NCBI GenBank assembly: GCA_049324715.1
Contig: JBMOMR010000049.1
Coordinates: 8,026-72,025, forward strand
Source: Chloroflexota bacterium
Lineage (GTDB): Bacteria; Chloroflexota; Anaerolineae; Anaerolineales; Villigracilaceae
Direction of reading: 5' to 3'
Length of the DNA: 64,000 nt
Every line of letters starts with the position of its first letter. Position 1 is the first letter of the stretch. A model generated the notes under the pieces. That model ran no database searches. It was not told the origin of the DNA and saw nothing but the letters and a program-made list of their open reading frames with translations. Positions 2,670 to 52,075 of the stretch are shown piece after piece. Both the position numbers and the translations under genes were made by a program.

Positions 2670-3950
2670 ATGAAAGCGCGCAACATTTTTCTCTTCATCA
2701 CCCTGATCGCTTCGCTCGTGCTTTCCTCCTGCGGGGGAATTCCCCAGGCCAGCGGGAACATCTCGTTCATGGTCTTCGGCGACCCCGCCGAACTCGCCGC
2801 CTACCAAACTTTGGTGGACGCCTTCCACGCGAAACATCCCGAAATCAAAGTGGAATTGATCCACATCCCCGGGCAATCGGACTACCGCAAACGCCTCGCC
2901 GCGGACCTGACAGCGAGTACGCCCGCCGATGTGGTACTCATCAACTATCGGCGTTACGCGCCCTTCGCCGCGCTGGGTGCGCTGACCCCGCTGGATTCGT
3001 ACTTCAACAATTCCGAATTGATTGCGAAGGAGGATTTCTACTCCGAATCGTTCGACCCCTTCATCTACGAGGGACAGTTGATGTGCATCCCGCAGAACCT
3101 TTCTAGCCTGGTCGTCTACTACAACAAGGAACTCTTCGATCAGGCGGGCGTCGCCTACCCGTCCGCAGATTGGACGTGGGACGACTTCCTCGCCACCGCG
3201 CAGGCGTTGACCCAAGACACGAACGGCGATGGGACGACCGACCAATTCGGCGTCGGCATCGAAGCCTCGCTCATCCGCTTCGCACCATTCGTCTGGCAGG
3301 CGGGCGGCGATCTCGTGGACGATGAAACCAATCCCACCATGTTGATGCTCGACACTGACGAAGCCTTCGACGCCATTGATTTCTTCGTCAGCCTGCAGAC
3401 CATCCACCACGTGGTACCCAACGCAGAAGAGGAAACCGCGCAGGATAGCGAAAGCCGCTTCATCAATGGTACAACGGCGATGTTCTTCAACAGCCGCCGC
3501 GGCGTGCCCACCTACCGCGAGTCCGCTGTCTTCGATTGGGACGTGGCCGCCCTGCCGCAAGGCGAGACCAAAGCGGGCATCCTCCATGCGGACGGCTACT
3601 GCCTGCCGAGTGCCTCGAAGAACAAGGACGCCGCCTGGGTCTTCATTGAATTCGCAAACTCCGCCGAGGGCCAGACCATCGTCGCCGCGTCGGGACGAAC
3701 TGTCCCTTCGTTGAAAGCGGTCGCCAACTCGCCCGCCTTCCTCGACCCGAAGTCCCGACCCGCCAACAGCCGCGTCTTCCTCGACACCATCCCGTTCATG
3801 CGCGCCCTGCCCGTCCACGCGAACTGGGCCGAGATCGAAGACGCCGCGGGCGAGGAAATCTGGCGCGCTTTCTATGGTGAGGCCGATCCATATGAAGCCC
3901 TGATTCGCGCCGTGGAACGCTCGCGCGAGATTTTCGCGCTTACTCAATGA
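2670..3950 (+). CDS. Carbohydrate ABC transporter substrate-binding lipoprotein (solute-binding family 1)
   Basis: Signal peptide with lipobox LSSCGG; family-1 SBP-like sequence; followed by two permease genes. Confidence 0.8.
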   Translation: MKARNIFLFITLIASLVLSSCGGIPQASGNISFMVFGDPAELAAYQTLVDAFHAKHPEIKVELIHIPGQSDYRKRLAADLTASTPADVVLINYRRYAPFAALGALTPLDSYFNNSELIAKEDFYSESFDPFIYEGQLMCIPQNLSSLVVYYNKELFDQAGVAYPSADWTWDDFLATAQALTQDTNGDGTTDQFGVGIEASLIRFAPFVWQAGGDLVDDETNPTMLMLDTDEAFDAIDFFVSLQTIHHVVPNAEEETAQDSESRFINGTTAMFFNSRRGVPTYRESAVFDWDVAALPQGETKAGILHADGYCLPSASKNKDAAWVFIEFANSAEGQTIVAASGRTVPSLKAVANSPAFLDPKSRPANSRVFLDTIPFMRALPVHANWAEIEDAAGEEIWRAFYGEADPYEALIRAVERSREIFALTQ

Positions 3951-27921: not shown

Positions 27922-29457
27922 ATGCAATTTGTCAAAGACCGTTTCGATTATCTCTTCCGTTCCACGCGCGGGCTGACCTTGGTCGCCATTGCGGTGGTTT
28001 CCATCATTACCGCCATTTTCGGAACGCTTTCTGGCCCAATGGTGGAGTGGGGCATCAAAGACATCACCGTGCGCGTGCTCGGTTTGAAACTGGTCGAGGC
28101 AGACCGTGAGGGACGCATCATCATGCTCTACCACACGATCGCCATGACCATCACCGCCATCGAAGTCTATTTCATGACCGAGATTCTGCCGATGAAACGT
28201 CACGAACAGACGATCATCAACGGGACGATCACTGTCGGGTACCTGACAGCAGCCATCTTCGGCCTGCTCTTTGCCTACTGGGGACACAACTTCATCTTCC
28301 ACGGGCTGTTTCTGGTCGGACAGTCGTTGGTTTTCTTCGCGGGTATTTTGCTGACTGTGGCACTCAACCCCTGGAAGAAAGAATACCGACTGGATAAAGA
28401 CTCGCCTCATGCCCGTTCCAAGGGCGGCATGGACCTGGAACGCCTGGCGTTCTTCGTCATGGCGATTGCCATGTTGGTCTCTGCCACCTTCGGCGCTGTG
28501 ACAGGCTCATTCTGGGGCAACGGTCACGAGACCTTCCTCGGCGAAGACCTGATTCGTATGCCACATAAGACCGAGTTACAGAAAGCCATCATCGGCCACC
28601 TGCACATTATGCTCACCCTGCTGGCTGTGGGCATCACGCTCATCGTGGGACGCTGGGTCAAATTCAAGGGCGTCCTGCAAAAGATCGCCATGCCGCTGAT
28701 GGTCATCGGTATCATCGGCACCACCGCAGGAGCGCTCTCGGTGGTCTGGTTGGAATGGGCGCATACCATCATCTATGTCGGCTCGACCTTCATCATGCTG
28801 TCGGCGTTGATGTACGTCATTTATTCCTGGGACATGCTCATCAAGGAAGGCACGGCGGGTATTCAGAAGCCGAACTTCTTCCAGAAGATTGGCGCGTTGC
28901 TGCGTGACCCGCTCAAGTTCGGGCCTGGCTGGCAAATGGTCTTCATGAACTTTACGGTCAGCGGCGTGGGCATTTTCATGGCGGTCAAACTGGAGGAGAT
29001 CTTCCGCGTCTGGCCCCACCGCGAGGAACGCATCACCCTGACGGGACACTGGCACATCCTCTCGGGGCTGATCGCCACTATCATCCTGATGTACTTCGCC
29101 GACCTCTCGGGCTTGAAAGGCAAAGTCCGCAAGTGGTTCGGCTGGGCCATTATCCTCCTCTCCGACGTTGCCTTCGGCTCCGCCACCGTTTTCTCGATGA
29201 AGCGCCTCTTTGTGGACGAGATCAACCAGCAGGGCATCGTCAACACCACCATGCTCCTCATGGATCTGGGGTTGGGCATCCTTCTCGTTGCATTGGCGAT
29301 CTTCATGATCTGGAGGTTATACGACTTGCTCCAAAAGAAAGGCCACTGGTCCATGGAATATGCGGCGGAGCGCAAGACCAACGCCGAGGCGGAACTCGCG
29401 GAACAGAAACGCAAAGCCGAGGAACTCAACGCCATTTTGAAGGAGGTGTCGAAATGA
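27922..29457 (+). CDS. Large polytopic (about 12 TM) membrane protein with a C-terminal coiled coil; function unknown
   Basis: RBS AGGAG; 12 hydrophobic segments; C-terminal EAELAEQKRKAEELNAILKE; ATGA-coupled to the downstream FGE-like lipoprotein. Confidence 0.6.
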   Translation: MQFVKDRFDYLFRSTRGLTLVAIAVVSIITAIFGTLSGPMVEWGIKDITVRVLGLKLVEADREGRIIMLYHTIAMTITAIEVYFMTEILPMKRHEQTIINGTITVGYLTAAIFGLLFAYWGHNFIFHGLFLVGQSLVFFAGILLTVALNPWKKEYRLDKDSPHARSKGGMDLERLAFFVMAIAMLVSATFGAVTGSFWGNGHETFLGEDLIRMPHKTELQKAIIGHLHIMLTLLAVGITLIVGRWVKFKGVLQKIAMPLMVIGIIGTTAGALSVVWLEWAHTIIYVGSTFIMLSALMYVIYSWDMLIKEGTAGIQKPNFFQKIGALLRDPLKFGPGWQMVFMNFTVSGVGIFMAVKLEEIFRVWPHREERITLTGHWHILSGLIATIILMYFADLSGLKGKVRKWFGWAIILLSDVAFGSATVFSMKRLFVDEINQQGIVNTTMLLMDLGLGILLVALAIFMIWRLYDLLQKKGHWSMEYAAERKTNAEAELAEQKRKAEELNAILKEVSK

Positions 29458-30404
29458 AACGGACACTCTTCATCCTGGCCCTGCTTGCGCTGACTCTCGC
29501 CGCCTGCGGAAACGCTCCAAGCGTTGGTTCCATCACGCCTCCTTTCATAGACCCTGGAATTGACCCCGAATCCTGGGCCACTGTCCCTGCTGGTGAATTC
29601 CCCTACGGCCAGCACGACCACATGACGATGGTGGATTACGATTACGAGATCATGGTCACCGACGTGACCAACGAACAGTATGCCCGCTTCCTGAACGCGG
29701 CCCTGACCGACGGGACCGTCAAAGTCGGCGAAGTGGAAGTGGAGGCAGGCGAACAGATCTGGCACGAGACGGGCGTGCATGGCGCGTACCCTGGCGATCC
29801 CTTCGACGGCTACGAGCACGAAGAGGAGATCAGGGCTGGCGACAAACTCTACGCCCCCACCCAGGTGGAGGGCCTGCGCCTGACCTTTGACGGCGCGCAA
29901 TTTACCGCCATCTACGAGTATGGCAACCACCCAATGACAATGGTCACTTGGTTCGGCGCGAACGCCTACTGCCAATATTACGGTTGGCGTTTGCCGACCG
30001 AGATCGAATGGGAAAAAGCCGCGCGCGGCACCGAACTGGTGAACGGTCACGGCCTGCCCTACCCCTGGGGCGAGCACATCGAACGCAACAATGCCAACTA
30101 CTACTCGTCCTTCGACCTGTTCGAGAAGATGTTCGGAAAACTCGGCAATACCACGCCCGTCGGATTCTTCAATGGCAAGACCTACGACGGCTACACAACC
30201 CTCGACTCCGCCTCGCCCTATGGTTTGTACGACATGGCGGGCAACGTCTGGCAATGGACAGGCGACGACTATCCCGACCAGCACTACCGTATGTTGCGCG
30301 GCGGTAGTTTCTACACCTACGAAGTGGACCTGCGCGTCTGGAAGAACAACTCGGCTGGGCCGCAGTATTACAGCCCCCAAGTCGGCTTCCGTTGCGTGAG
30401 GTAA
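29454..30404 (+). CDS. FGE/SUMF1-family lipoprotein, non-catalytic variant (NirV-like)
   Basis: Lipobox LAACG. FGE motifs are present: GWRLPTEIEWEKAARG, LYDMAGNVWQW, RGGSF…GFRCV. There is no Cys pair between RGGS and GFRC, so it is not predicted to be a catalytic FGE. Confidence 0.7.
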   Translation: MKRTLFILALLALTLAACGNAPSVGSITPPFIDPGIDPESWATVPAGEFPYGQHDHMTMVDYDYEIMVTDVTNEQYARFLNAALTDGTVKVGEVEVEAGEQIWHETGVHGAYPGDPFDGYEHEEEIRAGDKLYAPTQVEGLRLTFDGAQFTAIYEYGNHPMTMVTWFGANAYCQYYGWRLPTEIEWEKAARGTELVNGHGLPYPWGEHIERNNANYYSSFDLFEKMFGKLGNTTPVGFFNGKTYDGYTTLDSASPYGLYDMAGNVWQWTGDDYPDQHYRMLRGGSFYTYEVDLRVWKNNSAGPQYYSPQVGFRCVR

Positions 30405-35469: not shown

Positions 35470-35562
35470 TCTTTCCAAACGAACGAGCGCGTCCCACCAT
35501 CCAAAAATAAAACAGGGTTGCATTTCTGCAACCCTGTTGGTCGGAAAACCAATCTTGTAGTC

Positions 35563-35775
35563 TTACGTGAGCAGGACAACGTTCGCCGCCTGAAGGCCCT
35601 TCGGCCCTTCTTCGACGGAGAACTCCACCTTTTGCTCAGCCTCCAATTTTTTGTAACCTTCCATCTGCAACGCGCTGAAATGGACAAAAACATCCTCGCC
35701 ATTCTCGCGGCCGATGAAGCCGTAGCCCTTCGTGGCATTGAACCACTTGACGGTGCCAACAAAACGTTCAGACAT
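35563..35775 (-). CDS. csp: Cold-shock protein (CspA family)
   Basis: [21 protein letters not shown]…DVFVHFSAL carries the RNP1 and RNP2 motifs; long 5' UTR; hairpin terminator at 35497-35530. Confidence 0.85.
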
Positions 35776-36056
35776 GCTACTTTCTCCTAACAGAAACAGA
35801 ATTCGCCCGGTCGTCCGTTTCGCTTGCAACGGGCGAACGCGGGCACGTTCGCTAATTTATCACTTCTAATTGGACATGTCAAGCCCAAATTTTATTTTCT
35901 TCCGAATCGTCGCAAAACGCGAGACAAGATGGACCCACGGCGGTGACCACCTCACCCGCGGGACCCCACGCTGGATGACCATCCGCAACTCCTCTGGACA
36001 TAAAATATTTTTTTCAAGGACAAGATTCCCCTCCAAATTAGCAATGCTGAATTAGA

Positions 36057-37343
36057 CTACACGATACATACTACTCTAAAACCAACATTATTTAATGCTT
36101 CCTCATCGGGAAGAAAAGTATATCGGCTAGAAACACGCGCACCGTACTGATAGAAACTCCACGCGCCCCCGCGTAATGCAAGCCCTGTGCATGATCTGTC
36201 ATAATAATTAGCCTGCCATTCCCAAACATTGCCAGCCATATCCATCACCCCATGTGTGCTAATTCCACGTAGGTAGGCGTTCACCGGAGTGGTACCGCCA
36301 ATATTGTAATGGACATTTGCCCGTCGCGCGATTTCCCTATCGTTCCTCGTCGCTATGTGAGCCTTATCCCATGGATAACGAGACATTGGATTTTCTCCTC
36401 CCGCTGCGGCTGACCACTCAATTTCCAAAGGAAGGCGGATTTGTTTAGGGTGAAAATCTGGATTTGCAAGTTCTTCAAGACTGTCCTTCCAGTTACGAAG
36501 TAGCCATTTGCAATAGGCATTTGCCTCATACCATGAAATAGCAACTACAGGATGATCGTGTTTAACAATGCCAAGTTCAGCATCGTGCCAATAGGTAGGG
36601 AAATATCCTGAAATTTTCGATTTACTTTTTAACCACTTCCAACCTTCATTTTCCCACTGACCAATTTGGATACAGTTTTCGTTGAATTTAGGAAACTCAG
36701 TCCATATCGAATCGTTTACAGAAAAATCAAGCGAAGATAAAAAACGTTCGTACTGTACATTAGTGATGGGATATTTGCTAATATGGAATGTATAAGGAAC
36801 TTGACCAATGGGTATAGAAACGAATCTATGCAGATCAAAATCATCGCTATCCTTAAAATCCAATGCCAGTTCCGCAGGTGTCTTTCGATCCAAATCGCGG
36901 GCGCATTTCTCTAGCGCTTGCAATAATTGTGGATAGGCATACAAGGAAGAATCGCCTATGGAATGGCTAGCAAACCTAATATGATGTAAATGGTTAAGAC
37001 AAAATGGAACATCACAATTGTCAAACAAATAAGGCACAATAAAAATTCTACCGTCAGGTTTGTTTTTTGAAATATCTAAAGCCTCCTTAATTTCTCTTTG
37101 AACATAGCCATCTTTAGTTGTAGACTCTTTCGAGAGACAAATAATAATATTGTCCACAGTACTCATGACTTTAAGAATCTTCATATCCCATTTTTCCCCC
37201 GGTAGCAGTTGCTCTTCAGCTATCCAAGGGTCGATCCAAGCCTCAGTTTTTAAGCGATCGTATAACTTACGCGCTTTAGATTCATCTTCCTGAGCATGGC
37301 AGATAAACACACTAAGTTTTCGATGCGTTGAGGATATAGTCAT
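36057..37343 (-). CDS. TIR domain protein fused to a C-terminal non-catalytic FGE/SUMF1-like domain (low-GC island)
   Basis: TIR motifs are SVFICHAQEDESKARKLY, YVQREIKEAL and RIFIVPYLFDNCDVP. FGE motifs are ISWYEANAYCKWL, MDMAGNVWEW, RGGAWSFYQY…GFRVVC. No Cys pair follows RGGAW. Local GC is about 40%. Confidence 0.75.
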   Translation of the reverse strand: MTISSTHRKLSVFICHAQEDESKARKLYDRLKTEAWIDPWIAEEQLLPGEKWDMKILKVMSTVDNIIICLSKESTTKDGYVQREIKEALDISKNKPDGRIFIVPYLFDNCDVPFCLNHLHHIRFASHSIGDSSLYAYPQLLQALEKCARDLDRKTPAELALDFKDSDDFDLHRFVSIPIGQVPYTFHISKYPITNVQYERFLSSLDFSVNDSIWTEFPKFNENCIQIGQWENEGWKWLKSKSKISGYFPTYWHDAELGIVKHDHPVVAISWYEANAYCKWLLRNWKDSLEELANPDFHPKQIRLPLEIEWSAAAGGENPMSRYPWDKAHIATRNDREIARRANVHYNIGGTTPVNAYLRGISTHGVMDMAGNVWEWQANYYDRSCTGLALRGGAWSFYQYGARVSSRYTFLPDEEALNNVGFRVVCIV

Positions 37344-37420: not shown

Positions 37421-38101
37421 TTATTGTCTCAAATCGGCTTTGAATTTCTTGATCACAAAAGCATACCGAGAAGCCAAATGAAACCAAGGGGGAGACCACT
37501 TAACGCATGGAACGCTATTTTTGATAGCCTGCCGTAAACCAATTGGGTTGTCAAACCAATGGAGGAAAAGTAGGGATCGTCCAACTTCTATTGCCGCGTG
37601 TGCATCCGAACCAACTGTTCCTGCCACATTATACCTTTTTGCAAACCATTTTGCATGATTATTAAACCACGGCAACATACACCGTGAGTTGAACACCTCA
37701 ATTGCATCCACCAACGGGACAATTTCCTCCAAATCGAACAGTGCCCAGCCCCCTTTCCGCAACCTGTCGAACGGATGCGACACGCTGATAAACGCCCCCT
37801 GCTCCCGCAACCGACGGATCGTCTCCTGCGGCGAAAGCCCCGCGGGAACCTCCTCCGACACGAACGCGGCCAGAATCTCCCCCCGCGTCGTCATAACCTC
37901 CTCCCCGACGATGATCCGCTCTGGGTCAATTCTCTGTGCTTCGAGTGCCCCCGCAATGGAATTGTGATCCGTCACAACGACGCGGTCAATCCCCTTCCGC
38001 CGCGCCGCCGCGACCAGGTCCGCGGGACGGAGGAGGGAGTCCGCTGAGGCGGAGGTGTGGCAGTGGAATTCTACACGAAATTGGGATGATATTTGTGGCA
38101 T
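37421..38101 (-). CDS. PHP-domain metal-dependent phosphoesterase
   Basis: HCHTSASADSL is the PHP motif I; additional His and Asp residues (DHNS, SHPF, GSDAHA). Confidence 0.7.
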   Translation of the reverse strand: MPQISSQFRVEFHCHTSASADSLLRPADLVAAARRKGIDRVVVTDHNSIAGALEAQRIDPERIIVGEEVMTTRGEILAAFVSEEVPAGLSPQETIRRLREQGAFISVSHPFDRLRKGGWALFDLEEIVPLVDAIEVFNSRCMLPWFNNHAKWFAKRYNVAGTVGSDAHAAIEVGRSLLFLHWFDNPIGLRQAIKNSVPCVKWSPPWFHLASRYAFVIKKFKADLRQ

Positions 38102-38197
38102 TCGTTACTTGACAAAGAAGTTTTTGCCAGTATATACTGACAGTACGAAATACGCAAAGACGACTTTGGTTTAGCCGGTGGCGGAGAGCATCGCTGA

Positions 38198-40042
38198 ATG
38201 AACGTGATTGCGTTTCTCAATAACATGTTCGTCCTAGCCAACGCAATGTTGGATGTTGCGTTTCTTTGGGGTGGAATAATTCTGCTTCTTGCAGTTTATC
38301 CCGTTTACTTTTTCTCGTCTAATCTCAAAAAATACACAAAGGAACATCACGGTCCAGAACTGCTGATGCAAACCGTTATCCTTGTCCTGATCGTCGCGGT
38401 AATTGCATTAGTTTGGGCGCTTCCAGATATCATCTGGGCATTCAAAATGCGGGTAAGCGAACCATCGACTACCTCAATCACACTAAATGTAGTTACCGAT
38501 ACAATGAGGATTGATAGGCAGATCGGTTGGAACGAAAAGCCATCCATCGTGCTAAATATGTCTAATGAAGCATTGACAATCGATGAGCCCGTCACTTGGG
38601 GACAATTTGCATGGACTTTTTCATCGATTCGCTGGGGAGTGCTCCTCCTCGCATTTTTTGCCGCCGCATATCTATTGGGACGCGAACACGGAAAAAACCG
38701 ATGGCTGATTTCTGCTGTTGGACATGTTGCGGTGATTGCGATTGGCTGGATTGTCAATTTTTGGATGGGTATTATCTTCATTTCCATACCAATCATTGTC
38801 ATGTACTATGGCGCACTCTATGATCTTGCAAATGTTGTCCTTCCCGCATCAAATCCCGAAGACCGCGCGGAGAAGAAGAAAAAGTTCTTTGTGCTGGCAT
38901 CCTACGCCTGGGGAACCCAGGCGCCCCTCACAGTTGTGGATGACCACGCCTGGAAAAAATATGAACCGCGCATCTCCGGTGATATTACATGGGAATTTTC
39001 TGAATTCCCTATTCCATTCCTGAATAAACTTCAGCGCCCCGGGCTGATCTGGACAAAGTCCCACCAGGTAGCCGCAATTTCTGGCGGAACGAACTTCAGG
39101 CGCATAGATGGTCCCGGCGTGATATTTCCCAGCAAGTTGGAACGTCTCGACCAGGTTTTTGATTTACGGATACAACTCCGCACCAGGGAAATTGAAGTTG
39201 TTAGCAAGGATGGCATCCGCTTTATCGCGCGCTACTTTACCGCGTTTCGCCTCGATAAAGATGAGTGGAACAAGGAACTCTACGACAAAATTCGTCCACT
39301 CAACCCGCTTCTGCGCGGTGCAGACAAGTTGAGTTACACCAAGGGAAGTTTCCCCTTCTCCCACGCGCGTATTCAAGCGACCTTGAGCACTACCAGTACA
39401 AAAGTCAGTGAAGGGACACCGCTCATCCTGTGGGATCAGTGGGTGATGAACGTGGTCGAAGACCAGACGCGCAAGATCATCTCGCAAAAGAATCTGGACG
39501 AGATGTGGCGTCCTACAAATGATTATAAATTTGCCAATGCAATGGATGTTATCGCAATCGAACTCAAGGCAAATTCTGAATTGGCATTGCGCGCGGCTGG
39601 CATTTTGCTGGTTGCCGCTCGAGTGGTGAATTTCAAATTCCTGTTCACAGAAGAACAGGGCGACGAAATTGCCAAGCAGCAAATCCACACATGGGGCTCC
39701 GAATGGGAAAGAAAACGTCACGGCATCCTTGCAGAAGCAGAAGCGGAGGCAGAACGCGCACAACAGGAGGCGCGCGCCTACGCTGAGTCATTGCTTTTGA
39801 ATTCCATCGCGGAAGGCCTGCAAAAAACACACGAGATCAACCCAGAGTTACCTCGCCATGTTATAGCGATGCGTTTCTTGAGTTCACTTCAAGATTACGT
39901 TCACAAAGAAATGTCAGAAGAAGAGGAAGGCGAGGAAGAGAAAAACAACAAGACCAGCGAAAAAGAAAAGAGAGAAATGTTGAGCAGGTATTTCAAGGAT
40001 TGGCAGGACACCTTCTTCTCGGGCCGCGGCACGGAGAAATGA
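38198..40042 (+). CDS. Membrane protein with an N-terminal polytopic region and a C-terminal SPFH/band-7-like domain plus coiled coil
   Basis: About 6 TM helices; the SPFH core is VFDLRIQLRTREIEVVSKDGIRFIARYFTAFRL; C-terminal AEAEAEAERAQQEARAYAE; low GC. Confidence 0.6.
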   Translation: MNVIAFLNNMFVLANAMLDVAFLWGGIILLLAVYPVYFFSSNLKKYTKEHHGPELLMQTVILVLIVAVIALVWALPDIIWAFKMRVSEPSTTSITLNVVTDTMRIDRQIGWNEKPSIVLNMSNEALTIDEPVTWGQFAWTFSSIRWGVLLLAFFAAAYLLGREHGKNRWLISAVGHVAVIAIGWIVNFWMGIIFISIPIIVMYYGALYDLANVVLPASNPEDRAEKKKKFFVLASYAWGTQAPLTVVDDHAWKKYEPRISGDITWEFSEFPIPFLNKLQRPGLIWTKSHQVAAISGGTNFRRIDGPGVIFPSKLERLDQVFDLRIQLRTREIEVVSKDGIRFIARYFTAFRLDKDEWNKELYDKIRPLNPLLRGADKLSYTKGSFPFSHARIQATLSTTSTKVSEGTPLILWDQWVMNVVEDQTRKIISQKNLDEMWRPTNDYKFANAMDVIAIELKANSELALRAAGILLVAARVVNFKFLFTEEQGDEIAKQQIHTWGSEWERKRHGILAEAEAEAERAQQEARAYAESLLLNSIAEGLQKTHEINPELPRHVIAMRFLSSLQDYVHKEMSEEEEGEEEKNNKTSEKEKREMLSRYFKDWQDTFFSGRGTEK

Positions 40043-40043
40043 C

Positions 40044-41435
40044 ATGAAACTCCCTGACCCAGACCTCGTCAACTGGCAAACCGCCTACAGCCGCGATGAT
40101 GCCTATCGGGATTTTGGCAAGTATGCCCGATATTACAAGTATCTGTTATTTGCGAGCATTGGCCTTATTGCGGTTTTTATGGCAATCCAATTCTCACCAG
40201 CCGTTGACCAATGGGTTTCCCATTATTTGGGTAAATCGGATGCTTTGACAAAGGCGTCCATCCTGATGACCTTCCTGCTGGCCTTGTTGGCGGGGTACAT
40301 TGCCCTCTCGCTTATTCGGTCCAGGGCATTTCATTTTGCGACCTTGTTCTTTAGTGATTTTCATCAACCGCCTGAAGGCATCGAGCCAGCAAAAATCATC
40401 AAATACCGTCTCCACGGCAAATTCAAACTACCATCGCCGTTCACGATGATTTTTCAATTCAAATACATCATGGCAAAAGAAGGAGAGTTTATCAAAGCCG
40501 ATCAATGGCCTGCATGGATGGCGCGCACGCTTGGAGGTCCATTACTACTGATCGTATTTGACGGATGCGCCTTATATCTCGAACGCGGCAACCGTTTCTC
40601 GCGCGTTGTCGGCCCCGGGGATAAAATCCCCTTCTTGGAATGGTATGAAACTATCAAGTACGTGGTGGACCTGCGGCCAAGAGTCCGCGAGGATAAATTC
40701 GATGTTTGGACCAAGGATGGGATCAAGATAGAAATCAAGGCGCGCGTCGAGGGTCGCATCGGAGACCCCAAGAAGACGGACCCCGAAGGAAAGTTGATAT
40801 ATCCCTACGACCCAATGGCTGTACAAAAAGCCATTGAACGCTATGCCCTGCGCTGGTCTACCTGCCCGGAGGGAGAACCCGTTGAATTCACGTGGATTGA
40901 CGCAGTTTGGGGGCAGGTAACGGGGATAGTTCCAAGTTATATCGGTAGCAGAACATTAGATGACCTTCTACTAGAAAACCGAAAAAGTGGACAAATGCTC
41001 TCTCCAATTGCTGTTCAAGAGATGTTCGATAAACTAAATAATACTACTCAGGGCTTTGGAGTTTATGTAACAGATTTTCAAATCGTAGAAATAAAGATTC
41101 CACACGAAGTAGAGGAACTTCAAAAGGAATATTGGAAAGCAGAAAGACAAAGCGTGTCTACTATCTTGGGCGGACAGACCAAGGCACTCTATATTAGGTC
41201 TAGAGAAAAAGCCCGTGCAGATGCTCAACGCGACTTGATACTATCTATTGCTGATGGGCTTGAAAAGAATGAAAACGAAAATGAAAATGAACGCTTTACA
41301 GCACCCTTGCTTCTAACTTTCTCAAAAATCCTAGACAATAGCCTTAGCGACCCTCTTATGCGAGCGTACTTAGCAACAGCGACCCTTGAAACTCTTGAGA
41401 AACTACAGAGTATGCTTTCAAAGACATCTCAATAG
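40044..41435 (+). CDS. SPFH/band-7 (stomatin/HflK-like) membrane protein
   Basis: Two N-terminal TM helices; the SPFH core is LERGNRFSRVVGPGDKIPFLEWYETIKYVVDLRPRVREDKFDVWTKDGIKIEIKARVEGRIGD; overlaps the upstream gene (TGAcATG). Confidence 0.7.
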   Translation: MKLPDPDLVNWQTAYSRDDAYRDFGKYARYYKYLLFASIGLIAVFMAIQFSPAVDQWVSHYLGKSDALTKASILMTFLLALLAGYIALSLIRSRAFHFATLFFSDFHQPPEGIEPAKIIKYRLHGKFKLPSPFTMIFQFKYIMAKEGEFIKADQWPAWMARTLGGPLLLIVFDGCALYLERGNRFSRVVGPGDKIPFLEWYETIKYVVDLRPRVREDKFDVWTKDGIKIEIKARVEGRIGDPKKTDPEGKLIYPYDPMAVQKAIERYALRWSTCPEGEPVEFTWIDAVWGQVTGIVPSYIGSRTLDDLLLENRKSGQMLSPIAVQEMFDKLNNTTQGFGVYVTDFQIVEIKIPHEVEELQKEYWKAERQSVSTILGGQTKALYIRSREKARADAQRDLILSIADGLEKNENENENERFTAPLLLTFSKILDNSLSDPLMRAYLATATLETLEKLQSMLSKTSQ

Positions 41436-41444
41436 GACAATCTA

Positions 41445-42488
41445 ATGGTTCTTAACCTTCAATTAATAACTAGTTGGCTTGAAATAGAAGATGGCAGGAT
41501 TGTTGATCTAAAAAACAGCATCATGGCCACATTTGGTAACCCTCAAAAAATGCGTCCATTGATTGATCGACAGTGCGAAAACCGAGAGCAAACCCATTGC
41601 CTCTCGTGTGAAAGCGAAAGTGGGTGCTTGATTTTAAATGGAATTGTTTATCTAGAGTTAGGAGAAATTGAAAACGCAATAAGAGAGATTGAAAGTGCCA
41701 ACCGGCATTTCCGTAATAAAAATGAGACTCTAAATCAAATTATCGGTCTCGTATTGCTGGGACAAGCTTATGAGGATAAGAGAAAGGACCATTTAGCTCT
41801 CCGTGAATACGAACAAGCACAAAATGTTCTTGGAAACTATCGTCGAATCCATGCAAACGATTACTTAACAAAAGCTGAAGCCCTAAAAGATATCCTAGAC
41901 GGAAAAATCTCTGAACTTTCAGAGTCAAACTTTTCTGGCAATAGTTCACCAGCAGGTTCTGTAAATACAAATCCCAATCAAGCTATCAACGCCGGAAAAG
42001 ATTTTCTCGCGTTATTTTCCATTCCAATTTACGGAACCGTCGAAGCGGGCCTAGATGGCACATTGCACATAGATCATTTCAACATTTTCACGATTATCAA
42101 CCAAGTCGAGCTTAAAAAACAACTTTATGATGTCTATAATGTGCATGGCACCGCAGAGGCAGATCGGCAAATAACCATTACAACAAAGAGAGAACATGGC
42201 TGGCTGCGCGTTCATGGTCTAAGCATGAACGACTGGGATTTGCCTTTTAGCGAAAACGATTATGTTTTATTCTACAAATCCCAGACTGCGTCACATCATG
42301 ATTTTGTTATTGCATCAAACACCGACCCGTCAGGCGAAATAGATCTAATGGTCAAAAGATTTGACGCAGAAAAAAATCAATTGGTTTCCAAGTCGAAGGA
42401 TAAAAGCAAGCCGTATGGACCCATTCCAGTTGATGAGAGACACCAAATCGTAGGCATTGTAATCGCCATTGCCAAACCTGCCAAATAA
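41445..42488 (+). CDS. LexA-like S24 peptidase domain protein with a novel Cys4/helical N-terminal domain and no HTH
   Basis: The C-terminal LRVHGLSMNDWDLPFSENDYVLF…DLMVKRF matches the LexA/CI Ser-Lys dyad region. The N-terminal cluster is C-x7-C-x2-C-x5-C. Confidence 0.65.
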   Translation: MVLNLQLITSWLEIEDGRIVDLKNSIMATFGNPQKMRPLIDRQCENREQTHCLSCESESGCLILNGIVYLELGEIENAIREIESANRHFRNKNETLNQIIGLVLLGQAYEDKRKDHLALREYEQAQNVLGNYRRIHANDYLTKAEALKDILDGKISELSESNFSGNSSPAGSVNTNPNQAINAGKDFLALFSIPIYGTVEAGLDGTLHIDHFNIFTIINQVELKKQLYDVYNVHGTAEADRQITITTKREHGWLRVHGLSMNDWDLPFSENDYVLFYKSQTASHHDFVIASNTDPSGEIDLMVKRFDAEKNQLVSKSKDKSKPYGPIPVDERHQIVGIVIAIAKPAK

Positions 42489-44979: not shown

Positions 44980-45807
44980 CTACGGTGTTGCGGTTTGTGC
45001 GCTCGTTGGAGTTGGGCTGAGCGTCGCAGAAGGGATGGGCGTGGGAGGCGCGTCCCCTTCCACGGTGAACGAACCCGCGCGTTTGAAGATTACGCCCACG
45101 TAAATTTGCACCGAGTATTCCCCCGGTTGCCAGCCGCCAGTGGGAAAATCGCACTCGCTGTAATAATAGCCGCCTGTGCCGCCGTCCCACGGATAACTCT
45201 CGAAGCAGTCCATCAACTCGCCGTTACGGTACCAGAGCGCCGTCCACTGCGAGCCAGGGACCATGCCATCGTACGAAAAAGTGGCAAAGACCCTCTGGAT
45301 CGGATTGCGGAACAATGTGGACGGGTTATCGGGCAGGCCGCCGACCACCGCCGTGGAAAACACCAGCGGACTGATGACCGCGTCGGGATTGGGCGTCACC
45401 ACGCTGATGAATCCCGCCTCCACGACCAACGGGAGAAACGGGGTTGCTGTTCCTGTCGGCGTGTCGGTGACGAGGGGTGTATCGGTGATGGTGGGCGTCA
45501 GTGTAATGGTGGGAGTGAGCGTAATCGTCGGGACGATGGAGGGCGTCAGCGTGGGGGCGATGGTGGGCGTTGGCGGGTAGATCTGGAAGGCAACTTTCAA
45601 TCCCGCGGTGGGAAGTAGGATGGCAAGCACGACCATGATCAGCGCGCCAAAGAACATCCACCACGCGGCAGACATGCGTGACTGACGCAGGCGGTAGAAC
45701 GTCAACTTGCGGGCAGATTGGAGGATTTGCAGTCCGTTGCGGGCAACCAGCAACGCCCCCAACCCAAGGATGACCGCAATCGCAATGATGCCAGAGCGAA
45801 TGTCCAT
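44980..45807 (-). CDS. Hypothetical membrane-anchored protein with TP-rich linkers
   Basis: Two TM helices; PTPTI repeats; the conserved C-domain (WYRNGELM…GEYSVQIYVG) is shared with the next gene. Confidence 0.5.
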   Translation of the reverse strand: MDIRSGIIAIAVILGLGALLVARNGLQILQSARKLTFYRLRQSRMSAAWWMFFGALIMVVLAILLPTAGLKVAFQIYPPTPTIAPTLTPSIVPTITLTPTITLTPTITDTPLVTDTPTGTATPFLPLVVEAGFISVVTPNPDAVISPLVFSTAVVGGLPDNPSTLFRNPIQRVFATFSYDGMVPGSQWTALWYRNGELMDCFESYPWDGGTGGYYYSECDFPTGGWQPGEYSVQIYVGVIFKRAGSFTVEGDAPPTPIPSATLSPTPTSAQTATP

Positions 45808-45829: not shown

Positions 45830-46651
45830 TCAGCGCGTCGGAGTGGCGCTCGGCGTCTCGGATGGAGGCGGGCTGGAGGTCCAGGTGGGAGACGAGGTGG
45901 GCGTATCGGTCGGCGTGGGCGGATTGCCCCTCAGCGTGAAGCGCCCCGTCGCCTTCCACTGCGCCCCCACGAAGAACTGCACTTCGTATTCCCCTTGGTG
46001 CCACTCGTGGATCGCAGGCTCCCATTTGACGGACGCACCGCCGCGTCCGCCCGATTCCCATGGACCGCTCTCGAAAAAGACCAGTTCGCCGTTGCGGAAC
46101 CACAACACGGTAAATTGAGCGCCATACGTCATGTGGCTGTAGGCAAAACTGGCGTACATGCGGAGAATGGGATTGGTGAACTCGAAACGATTGCCGATCG
46201 GATAATTACCATCCAGCGCTTCGGAAAAACGAATGTCGTTGATGACGGCGGAGGGCTGCGGCGTGACCGAACTGACCACCATGATTTCCAGTGAGATGGG
46301 CAAATGCGGAGTCGCTGTGGATGTGGCCGTGGCGGTCATCGTGCGGCCGGGGCGCGGCGTGGATGTCGGCGTGCGGCTCGGCGTGACAACCGCCGGCGAT
46401 GCGATCACCGCGGTGGCTGTCGGTTCGGGAGCAAGGATCGGAATGCGAGCGCGGTACAAAAGCAGGGCGACCACCGCCAGTAACAGCGACGCGCCCGTCA
46501 TCCACCAACCCGCGAGCACGCGCTGTCGGCGGTGTCGGAAGTAGATGGTTCTGCTTCCCAGCCGCAGGGCGCGCACGCCCGAAAGTAGCAGAAAGAAAGA
46601 AACGGCTACAAGAATGAAAACGAGCAGGTTGGTCCTGCTGAACAAGTCCAT
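45830..46651 (-). CDS. Hypothetical membrane-anchored protein, tandem paralog of 44980..45807
   Basis: Same architecture (WFRNGELVFFESGPW…GEYEVQFFVG). Confidence 0.5.
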   Translation of the reverse strand: MDLFSRTNLLVFILVAVSFFLLLSGVRALRLGSRTIYFRHRRQRVLAGWWMTGASLLLAVVALLLYRARIPILAPEPTATAVIASPAVVTPSRTPTSTPRPGRTMTATATSTATPHLPISLEIMVVSSVTPQPSAVINDIRFSEALDGNYPIGNRFEFTNPILRMYASFAYSHMTYGAQFTVLWFRNGELVFFESGPWESGGRGGASVKWEPAIHEWHQGEYEVQFFVGAQWKATGRFTLRGNPPTPTDTPTSSPTWTSSPPPSETPSATPTR

Positions 46652-50314: not shown

Positions 50315-52075
50315 CTACTTCTCCAGCTCGCAAACGCTATCTTTTTCGTTCCAGACACAACCATTGGATTGATTGTTGATGCACTGCACCTCAGTGGTGT
50401 GCTGTCCACAATTATAAAGCGGAGCGCATTGCAGCATGTCTACAGAAACGAAAGTACATCCCGTGGACGCGCTGGCCTGCTCGACGCGCGGGGCGCACGC
50501 ACCCGTGGACGGGTCATACGCGAATCCAGGTTGGCAATCGGGATAAAGGCCGATGGCCGGCGCCTGACAGCATTGGGAGGCATCATTGAACGAGAATCCC
50601 GCCGGGCAACCCACATAGCAGGTGCTGGCAAGTGACGGGTCGTTGATGCCGTAGAGATTGCAGTTGGCCTGTCCATTGGCAGGGACACAGCCGCCGAATA
50701 ACGCGTCGAAGTATTGCCCGGAGGGGCACTGATTGTCGAGGCCGATGGTGGGGCGGCAAACCTGTCCCGTGGAATCAAGCGCGTAGCCCGGCGGACAGCC
50801 CTCAGGTCCGCTTTGAGGCGTGATCGGGGTGTAGGCGCACTGTCGGGTGGCGGGGTCATACGCGTAGCCCGGGTCACACACCGCGTTCCCCAACGGGACG
50901 GTGGCGGGCTGTTGGTCGTCACAAGAGGAGTTGCAAACTTCCAGCGTGCCGCTCGTGGCATCGGGACCCGTACAGGTGACCTGCAACATGCCGCCCACGA
51001 TGGCATCGGTGCATTGATAGCCTGCCGTGCGGATGCGATAAGTGGTGCCAAGCGGAAGGATGATCGTATTGGACGGGACTTTGCCCTTGCAGGATGGTCC
51101 CACCCTCTGCGCCACAGGAACGGTGCAAAGACTGGACGGCGTGGGCGCGGTCAACTCGCCGGGCAGGTAGGGACTGGCCTGGCAATACGCCGGGAAATTG
51201 ATGGGTTGCTGGACGACACAACGGAAACCCAGGTCGCGGCTGGTGTAATTCGGGTCGGCGGGACGGCGGATGGAGGAGGCGATCTGCGTGGCGTCGCTCT
51301 CGAAGCTACTGCCGCGGATCACGCGATAGACGCCGCTTTCCGCACCGGGCGGATCCTGAATGGGCGAGGTGGCGTAGTAGGAGGCGTCGTACCAATCGGC
51401 CACCCACTCGAAGGCGTTGCCAGCCATATCGAGCGCAAGGTAGGGACTGGCGCTTTCAGGGTAGGAAACCACACTCTTGGTGGAGCCTCCGCAACCCGCG
51501 TAGTTCAACAGGTCACAGGAGGGCTGCTCGTTGCCCCAGGGATAGGTATTTCCGCCGGGACCGCGGGCGGCTTTCTCCCATTCGGCCTCGGTCGGCAGGC
51601 GTCCGCCAGCCCAGTTGCAGTAGGTGTTGGCCTGTTCCCAGTTCACGCCCACAACGGGGTGGTCGGCGTAAGTCGGGTTGGTGTACACCGGTCCGCCGGG
51701 GGTGGAGGCGGGCGGCGCGCAAACACCAACGCCCACACACAACGCGTACATGCGATTGGTGATCTTGGTGCGCGAAATCCAATAAGCGGAGAGACTGACC
51801 GAGTGGCTGGGGTTGTCGGCCCCGTTGCCGCCCATGGTGAACTGCCCCGCTGGGACATATGCCAGCGACCCGCCGTCCATCCAGGACATGACCGTCCCCG
51901 CGTTCGGCCCGCTGAGCTGGATCGGAACCAGCGTCGGGACGGCGGTCTCGGTGACGACGGAAATCAACGTGGGGGTGGGCGGTTCGGAGGTCGCAGGGGT
52001 CGCGGTCGGCGCACAGGCGGTGAGAAGGATCGCCAGTGCGAGGCCCAGTCCAAACAATGCTTGCAGTTTTTTCAT
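50315..52075 (-). CDS. Lipoprotein with an N-terminal non-catalytic FGE/SUMF1-like domain and a C-terminal Cys-rich repeat region
   Basis: Lipobox LTAC; FGE motifs GGRLPTEAEWEKAARG, LDMAGNAFEW, IRGSSF…GFRCVV with no Cys pair; about 7 repeats of C-P-x-G-[YF]-x-[YF]-D-x(n)-C. Confidence 0.7.
   Translation of the reverse strand: MKKLQALFGLGLALAILLTACAPTATPATSEPPTPTLISVVTETAVPTLVPIQLSGPNAGTVMSWMDGGSLAYVPAGQFTMGGNGADNPSHSVSLSAYWISRTKITNRMYALCVGVGVCAPPASTPGGPVYTNPTYADHPVVGVNWEQANTYCNWAGGRLPTEAEWEKAARGPGGNTYPWGNEQPSCDLLNYAGCGGSTKSVVSYPESASPYLALDMAGNAFEWVADWYDASYYATSPIQDPPGAESGVYRVIRGSSFESDATQIASSIRRPADPNYTSRDLGFRCVVQQPINFPAYCQASPYLPGELTAPTPSSLCTVPVAQRVGPSCKGKVPSNTIILPLGTTYRIRTAGYQCTDAIVGGMLQVTCTGPDATSGTLEVCNSSCDDQQPATVPLGNAVCDPGYAYDPATRQCAYTPITPQSGPEGCPPGYALDSTGQVCRPTIGLDNQCPSGQYFDALFGGCVPANGQANCNLYGINDPSLASTCYVGCPAGFSFNDASQCCQAPAIGLYPDCQPGFAYDPSTGACAPRVEQASASTGCTFVSVDMLQCAPLYNCGQHTTEVQCINNQSNGCVWNEKDSVCELEK

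Follow-up and report, generated by a model that had tools for sequence, protein, structure and literature searches.

A conserved three-gene unit of Chloroflexota encoding two SPFH proteins and a TPR-S24 protein of the LexA type

The DNA analysed here, called the window below, is a 64,000-nucleotide (nt) stretch of contig JBMOMR010000049.1 from a Chloroflexota bacterium of the order Anaerolineales (assembly GCA_049324715.1), and our subject is a trio of co-directional genes on its forward strand. According to the list of open reading frames (ORFs), these are gene 1 (SPFH-A, 38198–40042, 614 amino acids, aa), gene 2 (SPFH-B, 40044–41435, 463 aa), and gene 3 (TPR-S24, 41445–42488, 347 aa). SPFH scaffolds occur throughout life, most of the bacterial ones have no known function, and where the function is understood, the partner of the SPFH protein is a protease (FtsH, m-AAA, or NfeD/STOPP). 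The partner in the present locus belongs to another class, being a predicted autoprotease of the LexA type in which a TPR-like domain stands in place of the DNA-binding domain. As read from the sequence, genes 1 and 2 are separated by a single nucleotide (TGA-c-ATG), which an earlier note on this DNA had described as an overlap, and the distance between genes 2 and 3 is 9 nt (TAG-gacaatcta-ATG), not 10 nt as given there. A consensus scan revealed a sigma-70-like promoter candidate (TTGACA-18-TATACT, 38109–38138, + strand), a pattern match only, with 11 of 12 positions agreeing, which falls in the 96-nt spacer between gene 1 and a divergently oriented PHP gene. No convincing terminator was found by a sequence scan inside the three-gene cluster, and an Rfam scan upstream of gene 1 returned nothing. 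In the NCBI annotation gene 3 is an 'S24 family peptidase' and gene 1 a 'hypothetical protein', and a search of NCBIfam produced no equivalog-level match for the proteins of the trio.

The SPFH nature of gene 2 was apparent from the Pfam Band_7 model (PF01145), which it matched with 41.9 bits (cut-off 23.6, E = 1.5e-10), and its family profile retrieved PH stomatin from the PDB (6.5e-5), as well as HflC, QmcA, and stomatin. The hydrophobicity scan and the sequence together indicated a basic N-terminus and a hairpin of two N-terminal transmembrane (TM) helices (residues 33–51 and 73–91), which are followed by a divergent SPFH domain and a helical C-terminus. The protein had been regarded as a classical HflK/stomatin-like protein. 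Since it scored far under the cut-offs of both the HflK equivalog (TIGR01933, 21 bits, cut-off 159.4) and the HflC equivalog (TIGR01932, 17.2 bits, cut-off 134.4), gene 2 is, judged by its sequence, a very divergent SPFH protein rather than a classical one. Gene 1 had no match in Pfam, NCBIfam, or PADLOC, and its profile found nothing among the PDB sequences, thus its relationship was visible only by fold comparison and hhalign. Three observations nevertheless placed it in the same group: many of its homologues carry a precomputed Band_7 (PF01145) match, the alignment of the gene 1 and gene 2 family profiles by hhalign gave a probability of 99.1% (E = 1e-18, 274 columns), and the AlphaFold (AF2) model, with a mean predicted local distance difference test (pLDDT) score of 76, consists of N-terminal TM helices, an alpha/beta core, and a 58-residue helix. 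The best Foldseek match of this model was HflK (7vhq_E, 2e-7), followed by stomatin, HflC, prohibitin, erlin, flotillin, and QmcA down to 2e-5. For these reasons we concluded that genes 1 and 2 are a paralogous SPFH pair, as far as their SPFH identity is concerned in agreement with the earlier proposal. The unusual N-terminal region of gene 1 contains about five TM segments according to the hydrophobicity scan (residues 20–38, 55–73, 143–161, 170–188, and 189–207) instead of the about six suggested before; it is followed by the SPFH alpha/beta core (approximately 244–480), the long helix (490–547), and a C-terminal tail, and the juxtamembrane motif LPASNPEDR is conserved. The SPFH domains of both proteins are predicted to face the cytoplasm, because gene 2 has the basic N-terminus and the hairpin and because two TM helices are retained in those homologues of gene 1 in which the first TM block has given way to a TIR domain. 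Two remaining helices would leave the SPFH part and the TIR domain on the same side of the membrane.

The S24 assignment of the third protein held in both the Pfam profile and the fold searches. Gene 3 matched Peptidase_S24 (PF00717) with 39.1 bits (cut-off 23.3, E = 6.7e-10), and its AlphaFold model (pLDDT 76) comprises a helical TPR-like part (residues 1–163), a disordered linker (162–197), and a beta domain of the LexA/CI type (199–345), while the hydrophobicity scan detected no TM segment in it. The family profile of gene 3 retrieved the C-terminal domains of LexA, UmuD, and lambda CI from the PDB at 1e-7, and its N-terminal half matched TPR proteins; likewise, the best Foldseek matches were the lambda CI fragment with the cleavage site (2hnf), the C-terminal domain of Mycobacterium tuberculosis LexA (6a2s), and TPR domains. 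Sgt2, Rap, and the designed CTPR were among the TPR matches of the family profile and the AF2 model. The single sequence gave only spurious xylanase matches in the PDB, and the family profile was needed for these results. The Pfam TPR models stayed below threshold on gene 3, and TPR_12 and TPR_2 matched the orthologues more strongly yet still under the Pfam cut-offs. Neither a helix-turn-helix (HTH) nor LexA_DNA_bind was detected in gene 3 by Pfam, NCBIfam, or the PDB profile search, and its N-terminus is modelled as TPR-like helices where LexA has the HTH. True LexA proteins containing PF01726 turned up only as distant matches to the S24 search.

The catalytic residues of the LexA type are present and conserved. 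Ser260, the predicted nucleophile in the GLSMN motif (42222–42224, + strand), is invariant in the family alignments, and G-x-S-M was found in 95 of the 99 non-identical family sequences, the other four being truncated or frameshifted. Lys304, the predicted general base in VKRF (42354–42356, + strand), is nearly invariant and aligns with the VK motif of LexA; in a second family of trios, described below, the corresponding K320 is invariant. Both residues of the Ala201-Gly202 pair (42045–42050, + strand) are nearly invariant as well, and a hydrophobic-x-Ala-Gly sequence lies 35–85 residues before the catalytic Ser in 86 of 94 family members (84 recognised by regular expression and two by eye from the list of exceptions). 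LexA cleaves itself at Ala84-Gly85, and because of the analogous position, Ala201-Gly202 is the putative self-cleavage site of gene 3. Thus, gene 3 is a LexA-type Ser-Lys protease that lacks an HTH and has a TPR-like N-terminal domain, as the earlier note had anticipated. The cysteine cluster reported there (C44-x7-C52-x2-C55-x5-C61, codons within 41574–41627, + strand) was also found in the translation exactly as described; however, it turned out to be specific to a clade and not a feature of the family, since more distant orthologues have lost C52, C55, and C61, which do not vary within the close clade. Residues 45–56 belong to a low-confidence part of the AF2 model.

The conservation of the arrangement was examined by scanning one genome per GTDB species for the gene 1 family, which gave 33 loci, all from metagenome-assembled genomes of Chloroflexota mostly labelled Anaerolineae or Anaerolineales; the named source genomes of the trio were Chloroflexota in every case. 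For the trio family of the window (type 1), profile searches of the ORFs of these loci, supplemented with four contexts reached through gene 3, showed a TPR-S24 gene immediately behind the SPFH pair in 30 of the 34 loci where downstream DNA was available, four of these 30 genes being long forms of 579–723 aa. Stop/start overlaps of 1–4 nt are frequent in the trio (e.g. L015, L018, L030, and L038), and the S24 gene often overlaps gene 2, so the proposal of one conserved co-directional unit was borne out in the homologous loci. Locus L007 additionally contains a strongly diverged trio in inverted orientation, which includes an S24 gene of its own, and the search started from this S24 protein led to a second trio family (type 2). 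The order SPFH, SPFH, S24 was seen again in L040, L041, L046, L048, L049, and approximately 17 metagenome loci of this type, the members of which are related to genes 1–3 with phmmer E-values of about 1e-5 to 1e-8; most of their SPFH members are too diverged for recognition by Pfam. Both trio families occur together in L007, L048, L051, and L060, and the trio of L041 was relocated into a context of AbiEii, a transposase, and STAND ATPases. If the three genes were neighbours merely by descent, without any functional tie, some synteny would be expected within a single phylum; yet the order has outlasted a divergence that defeats Pfam as well as inversion, duplication, and relocation, and the genes are frequently coupled by translational overlap, which make this explanation highly improbable. 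Since the order survives such deep divergence and rearrangement, the linkage of the trio is due neither to chance nor to recent common descent.

The full HMMER search yielded 432 representatives of the TPR-S24 family at 50% identity (E ≤ 1e-30). Other architectures were noticed in this family: P0298 combines Trypsin_2, pentapeptide repeats, and two S24 stretches, and the remaining cases (P0288, P0309, P0317, P0325, and P0401) are proteins with two or three tandem S24 domains. On the SPFH side, a third and more distant SPFH-like pair, which has no S24 partner, was observed downstream of the trio (L009 8066–11448, L027 10354–13355, L030 14870–17871, and L001 19240–20910), with one member of each pair passing the Band_7 model.

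SPFH proteins often act in pairs, such as HflK/HflC, prohibitin 1/2, and flotillin 1/2. The trio resembles the HflK/HflC-FtsH and prohibitin 1/2-m-AAA systems in having two paralogous SPFH genes side by side and a protease, and the gene 1 model superposes on both HflK and HflC; a hetero-oligomeric membrane cage that works with the protease would be expected here likewise. In those systems, however, the partner is an AAA+ zinc protease, whereas the partner in the trio is a small soluble Ser-Lys protease of the LexA type, predicted to be an autoprotease. Moreover, the SPFH domains of HflK/HflC are periplasmic, in contrast to the predicted cytoplasmic ones of the trio, and gene 1 has about five TM helices. 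An FtsH gene did not turn up in the inspected loci, although an FtsH partnership does not require adjacency.

The other established arrangement is the stomatin-NfeD/STOPP type, exemplified by PH1511/PH1510 of Pyrococcus horikoshii and QmcA-YbbJ of Escherichia coli, where an SPFH gene also forms an operon with a dedicated partner. NfeD carries an OB-fold. Its long form is a membrane-bound Ser-Lys dyad protease with a ClpP-class fold (PMC13086221), and PH1510 is reported to clip PH1511, the stomatin of its own operon (PMC13086221, PMC4208085). Reviews of bacterial SPFH operons give NfeD and FtsH as the partners (PMC13086221). Unlike NfeD, gene 3 is a soluble protein with the LexA/signal-peptidase fold, and it combines an A-G site of its own with a TPR-like domain; NfeD is missing from the trio, as stated earlier, and neither NfeD nor a ClpP-type domain was found in genes 1–3 or their neighbours by Pfam and NCBIfam. 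The S24 domain could still be an analogue of NfeD/STOPP, cutting genes 1 and 2 in trans at their C-terminal regions and thereby controlling the assembly of the scaffold. SPFH genes frequently share an operon with a dedicated protease or NfeD, PH1510 itself uses a Ser-Lys dyad (PMC13086221, PMC4208085), and in the trio, which lacks NfeD, both the linkage and the catalytic dyad are conserved. Nevertheless, trans-clipping appears unlikely. The characterised S24 members LexA, CI, and UmuD are mainly self-cleaving, a self-substrate is also suggested by the conserved A-G, which lies at the canonical distance before the Ser, and the C-terminal tails of genes 1 and 2 vary; no conserved cleavage motif was noted in them, although no search was aimed at one. 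These tails showed no pattern of co-variation with the presence of gene 3. The component families and the theme of an SPFH scaffold combined with a protease were already known, and the partnership with an S24 protein is new to the literature searched: no description of an SPFH-S24 partnership was found in full-text searches, in accordance with the novelty claimed for the arrangement.

Gene 3 shares the fold, the Ser-Lys dyad, and the upstream Ala-Gly with LexA, lambda CI, and UmuD. It differs from LexA and CI in the TPR-like domain of approximately 160 residues that takes the place of the DNA-binding domain, and from all three in the long disordered linker and in extra strands that separate the putative cleavage site from the Ser; furthermore, it is encoded together with membrane proteins, while the others are found with SOS or prophage genes. 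UmuD is an S24 protein without an HTH that is able to respond to RecA*. A UmuD-like cleavage of gene 3 stimulated by RecA*, which would relay DNA damage or phage replication to the membrane scaffold, had been raised as an option, and the S24 domain is indeed nearest to LexA, UmuD, and CI, UmuD being the precedent for an S24 protein free of HTH. We consider such a response unlikely: the match to the UmuD model (NF007621) reached only 26.9 bits against a cut-off of 110 and fails at the subfamily level, no recA, lexA, or SOS gene is linked to the trio in the locus or in the inspected loci of relatives, and neither the extra strands nor the TPR domain has a counterpart in the RecA*-responsive proteins.

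Gene 3 changes much faster than its two partners. Its median pairwise identity is 33%, whereas gene 1 reaches 52% and gene 2 57%, and it was the least identical of the three in 180 of 190 locus pairs. Variants of the trio proteins repeatedly involve TIR domains. A TIR domain is fused N-terminally to homologues of gene 1 in P0152, P0157, and L028 and to the TPR-S24 protein in P0173 (TIR-TPR-S24), it is inserted between the TPR and S24 domains in P0294 and L058, and a gene for a TIR coiled-coil protein lies between genes 2 and 3 in L003. From the sequence, a cut at the A-G site in proteins of the P0294/L058 type would part TPR-TIR from the S24 domain. In L042 the S24 homologue is paired with a PLD gene that replaces the SPFH genes, and L041 and L080 are situated among Abi, toxin-antitoxin, and STAND genes. 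The TIR-gene 1 fusion locus of L080 (3074–4772) was observed directly 3′ of RHH/PemK and DUF2281/PIN pairs, with neither a PHP nor an S24 gene. The recurrence of TIR hints at a conflict or cell-death role, and through the variants with TIR or PLD a connection would arise between SPFH cages and the immunity or programmed cell death of multicellular bacteria. Kaur et al. (2020) noted Band7-like domains as superstructure-forming modules in the conflict systems of such organisms (PMC7159879). These systems are built on vWA-MoxR, STAND, or GTPase cores, use TIR and FGE-sulfatase (FGS) effectors, and are enriched in filamentous or multicellular bacteria (PMC7159879). The TIR fusions, the PLD pairing, and the Abi, toxin-antitoxin, and STAND contexts of the relatives of the trio resemble them, but the trio has no such NTPase as a constant partner, and S24 peptidases have 0 occurrences in PMC7159879.

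Considering these results, we tentatively favour a model in which genes 1 and 2 build an SPFH scaffold at the cytoplasmic face and gene 3 serves it as a cleavable regulatory subunit. By analogy with the paired SPFH proteins, genes 1 and 2 probably co-assemble as a large, membrane-anchored, hetero-oligomeric scaffold. We infer that gene 3 would interact with it as a soluble cytoplasmic partner, whose TPR-like domain may serve for docking or ligand binding. Upon a stimulus, the S24 domain would cut its own chain at Ala201-Gly202 by means of Ser260 and Lys304, which would make gene 3 a one-shot switch, and once cut, the TPR and S24 parts would no longer be coupled, which would alter the state of the SPFH assembly or its output. 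The latter could in some relatives be the TIR domain and hence the consumption of NAD+; because of this domain, a role in stress, infection, or cell death in filamentous Chloroflexota is the most likely context. If gene 3 is such a self-cleaving switch, LexA-style autoproteolysis would extend from gene regulation to the control of a membrane machine.

A bolder version, which we regard as rather unlikely, takes TPR-S24 for a portable, cleavable safety catch of an immune or cell-death system in filamentous Chloroflexota. Here, the TPR domain or the SPFH cage would sense the signal, the LexA-type self-cleavage would follow, and an effector would be licensed, which might be a PLD enzyme, the SPFH assembly as such, or a TIR NADase that is either joined to the scaffold or located between TPR and S24. 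If true, this would be the first LexA autoproteolysis outside the control of transcription and translesion synthesis and the first SPFH-based immune effector.

Several findings weigh against the proposed switch and its conflict role. In about 9% of the family the A-G is replaced by A-H, A-T, A-N, or A-S. The SPFH pair occurs without an S24 gene in L010, L020, L028, and the first pair of L007, and the two TIR-gene 1 fusions examined (L028 and L080) both lack the S24 gene, so the scaffold is able to exist in its absence. Because these genomes contain many TIR proteins, mere adjacency to one is weak evidence. No viral contig carrying the gene 1 family was found in the viral-contig scan. Finally, the trio occupies a fixed site between PHP/cold-shock and PfkB/IndA genes within a single phylum, a pattern that agrees better with vertical inheritance of a housekeeping module than with a mobile system of defence. 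For the idea of phage sensing put forward in the earlier note, the TIR fusions and insertions and the few contexts resembling defence islands offer only indirect support, and the fixed chromosomal position speaks against a mobile defence system of the usual kind.

The trio may accordingly be read as a housekeeping membrane module of Anaerolineae-type Chloroflexota, devoted for instance to membrane organisation or quality control, which might work with the PHP and cold-shock genes and has no conflict role, the TIR neighbours being incidental insertions at a permissive site. The neighbourhood bears on this reading in both directions. The PHP gene (37421–38101, − strand, 226 aa, Pfam PHP and PHP_C) encodes a PHP-family metal-dependent phosphoesterase and is divergent from gene 1. 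In type-1 loci it is the divergent upstream neighbour in nearly all cases, usually followed by the cold-shock gene, and PfkB and IndA genes are often found downstream of the trio. In type-2 loci PHP is co-directional with the S24 gene and lies directly 3′ of it, in some cases with an overlap (L046), and the cold-shock gene comes next. Both families therefore sit in the same slot with PHP adjoining the trio in both orientations, and the position is fixed though the trio proteins are only 30–60% identical, which speaks for a housekeeping function. PADLOC 2.0 is in line with this, as it returned nothing for gene 1 and only marginal partial matches for genes 2 and 3 (E = 0.028 and 7e-4), so a catalogued anti-phage system was discarded for want of a system-level match for genes 1–3; the neighbouring TIR protein alone matched TIR models. 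On the other hand, the G+C content at third codon positions (GC3) of the trio is consistently under that of its flanks and lowest in gene 3, which diverges fast, TIR is fused inside the family proteins and not just adjacent to them, and the surroundings of L041 and L080 are the toxin-antitoxin, Abi, and STAND genes mentioned above. We therefore judge a purely housekeeping role somewhat unlikely.

The status of PHP itself was reconsidered, and its designation as a definite fourth subunit was reduced to a possibility because it keeps, like the cold-shock gene, a constant position beside an inverting and duplicating trio, its GC3 resembles that of the housekeeping flanks, and it is absent from L041, L080, and L018. 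It is possibly a fourth component, or PHP and the cold-shock gene form a fixed anchor about which the trio is inverted or duplicated. L041 is the one trio that does not adjoin PHP, and a calcineurin-like (Metallophos) phosphoesterase was noted there at the divergent upstream position (2818–3786, − strand), which may replace PHP analogously.

The place between the PHP and cold-shock genes of the window is filled by a gene for a TIR_2 and FGE-sulfatase protein (36057–37343, − strand, 428 aa, Pfam), orthologues of which were found at the same position only in L009 and L030. Other variable genes have gathered at the chromosomal slot of the trio elsewhere, among them response-regulator-TIR and response-regulator-SLFN genes in L001 and a KAP NTPase gene in L046. 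The GC3 of gene 3 and of the TIR-FGE gene is 0.36 compared with 0.77–0.82 in the flanks. Recent horizontal acquisition in the window was considered and rejected as its cause: the same gradient recurs in most orthologous loci, thus the low GC3 is a property of the gene family.

On the other side of the trio, an ATPase gene of approximately 525 aa with weak ORC-CDC6-like and ATPase_2 matches was observed immediately behind the trio, on the opposite strand, in L006 (11073–12650) and L007 (13172–14749). In L010 (13139–14716) and L020 (4451–6019) the ORC/CDC6-like ATPase occupies the place of the missing S24 gene, and all four copies are on the − strand.

Some further features were seen in the window. 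Two tandem paralogous ORFs of about 275 aa (44980–45807 and 45830–46651, both − strand) have an N-terminal hydrophobic segment and Thr/Pro-rich low-complexity sequence, and neither had a match in Pfam. Besides the TIR_2 protein, FGE-sulfatase proteins are encoded at 29133–30404 (+ strand) and 50315–52075 (− strand), making three paralogues in total, and the last one has a weak match to the chitin-binding CBM_14. A sub-threshold Rfam match to the cspA thermoregulator (35508–35838, − strand, 47.4 bits with a gathering threshold of 78, E = 8e-10) spans the cold-shock gene (35563–35829, − strand).

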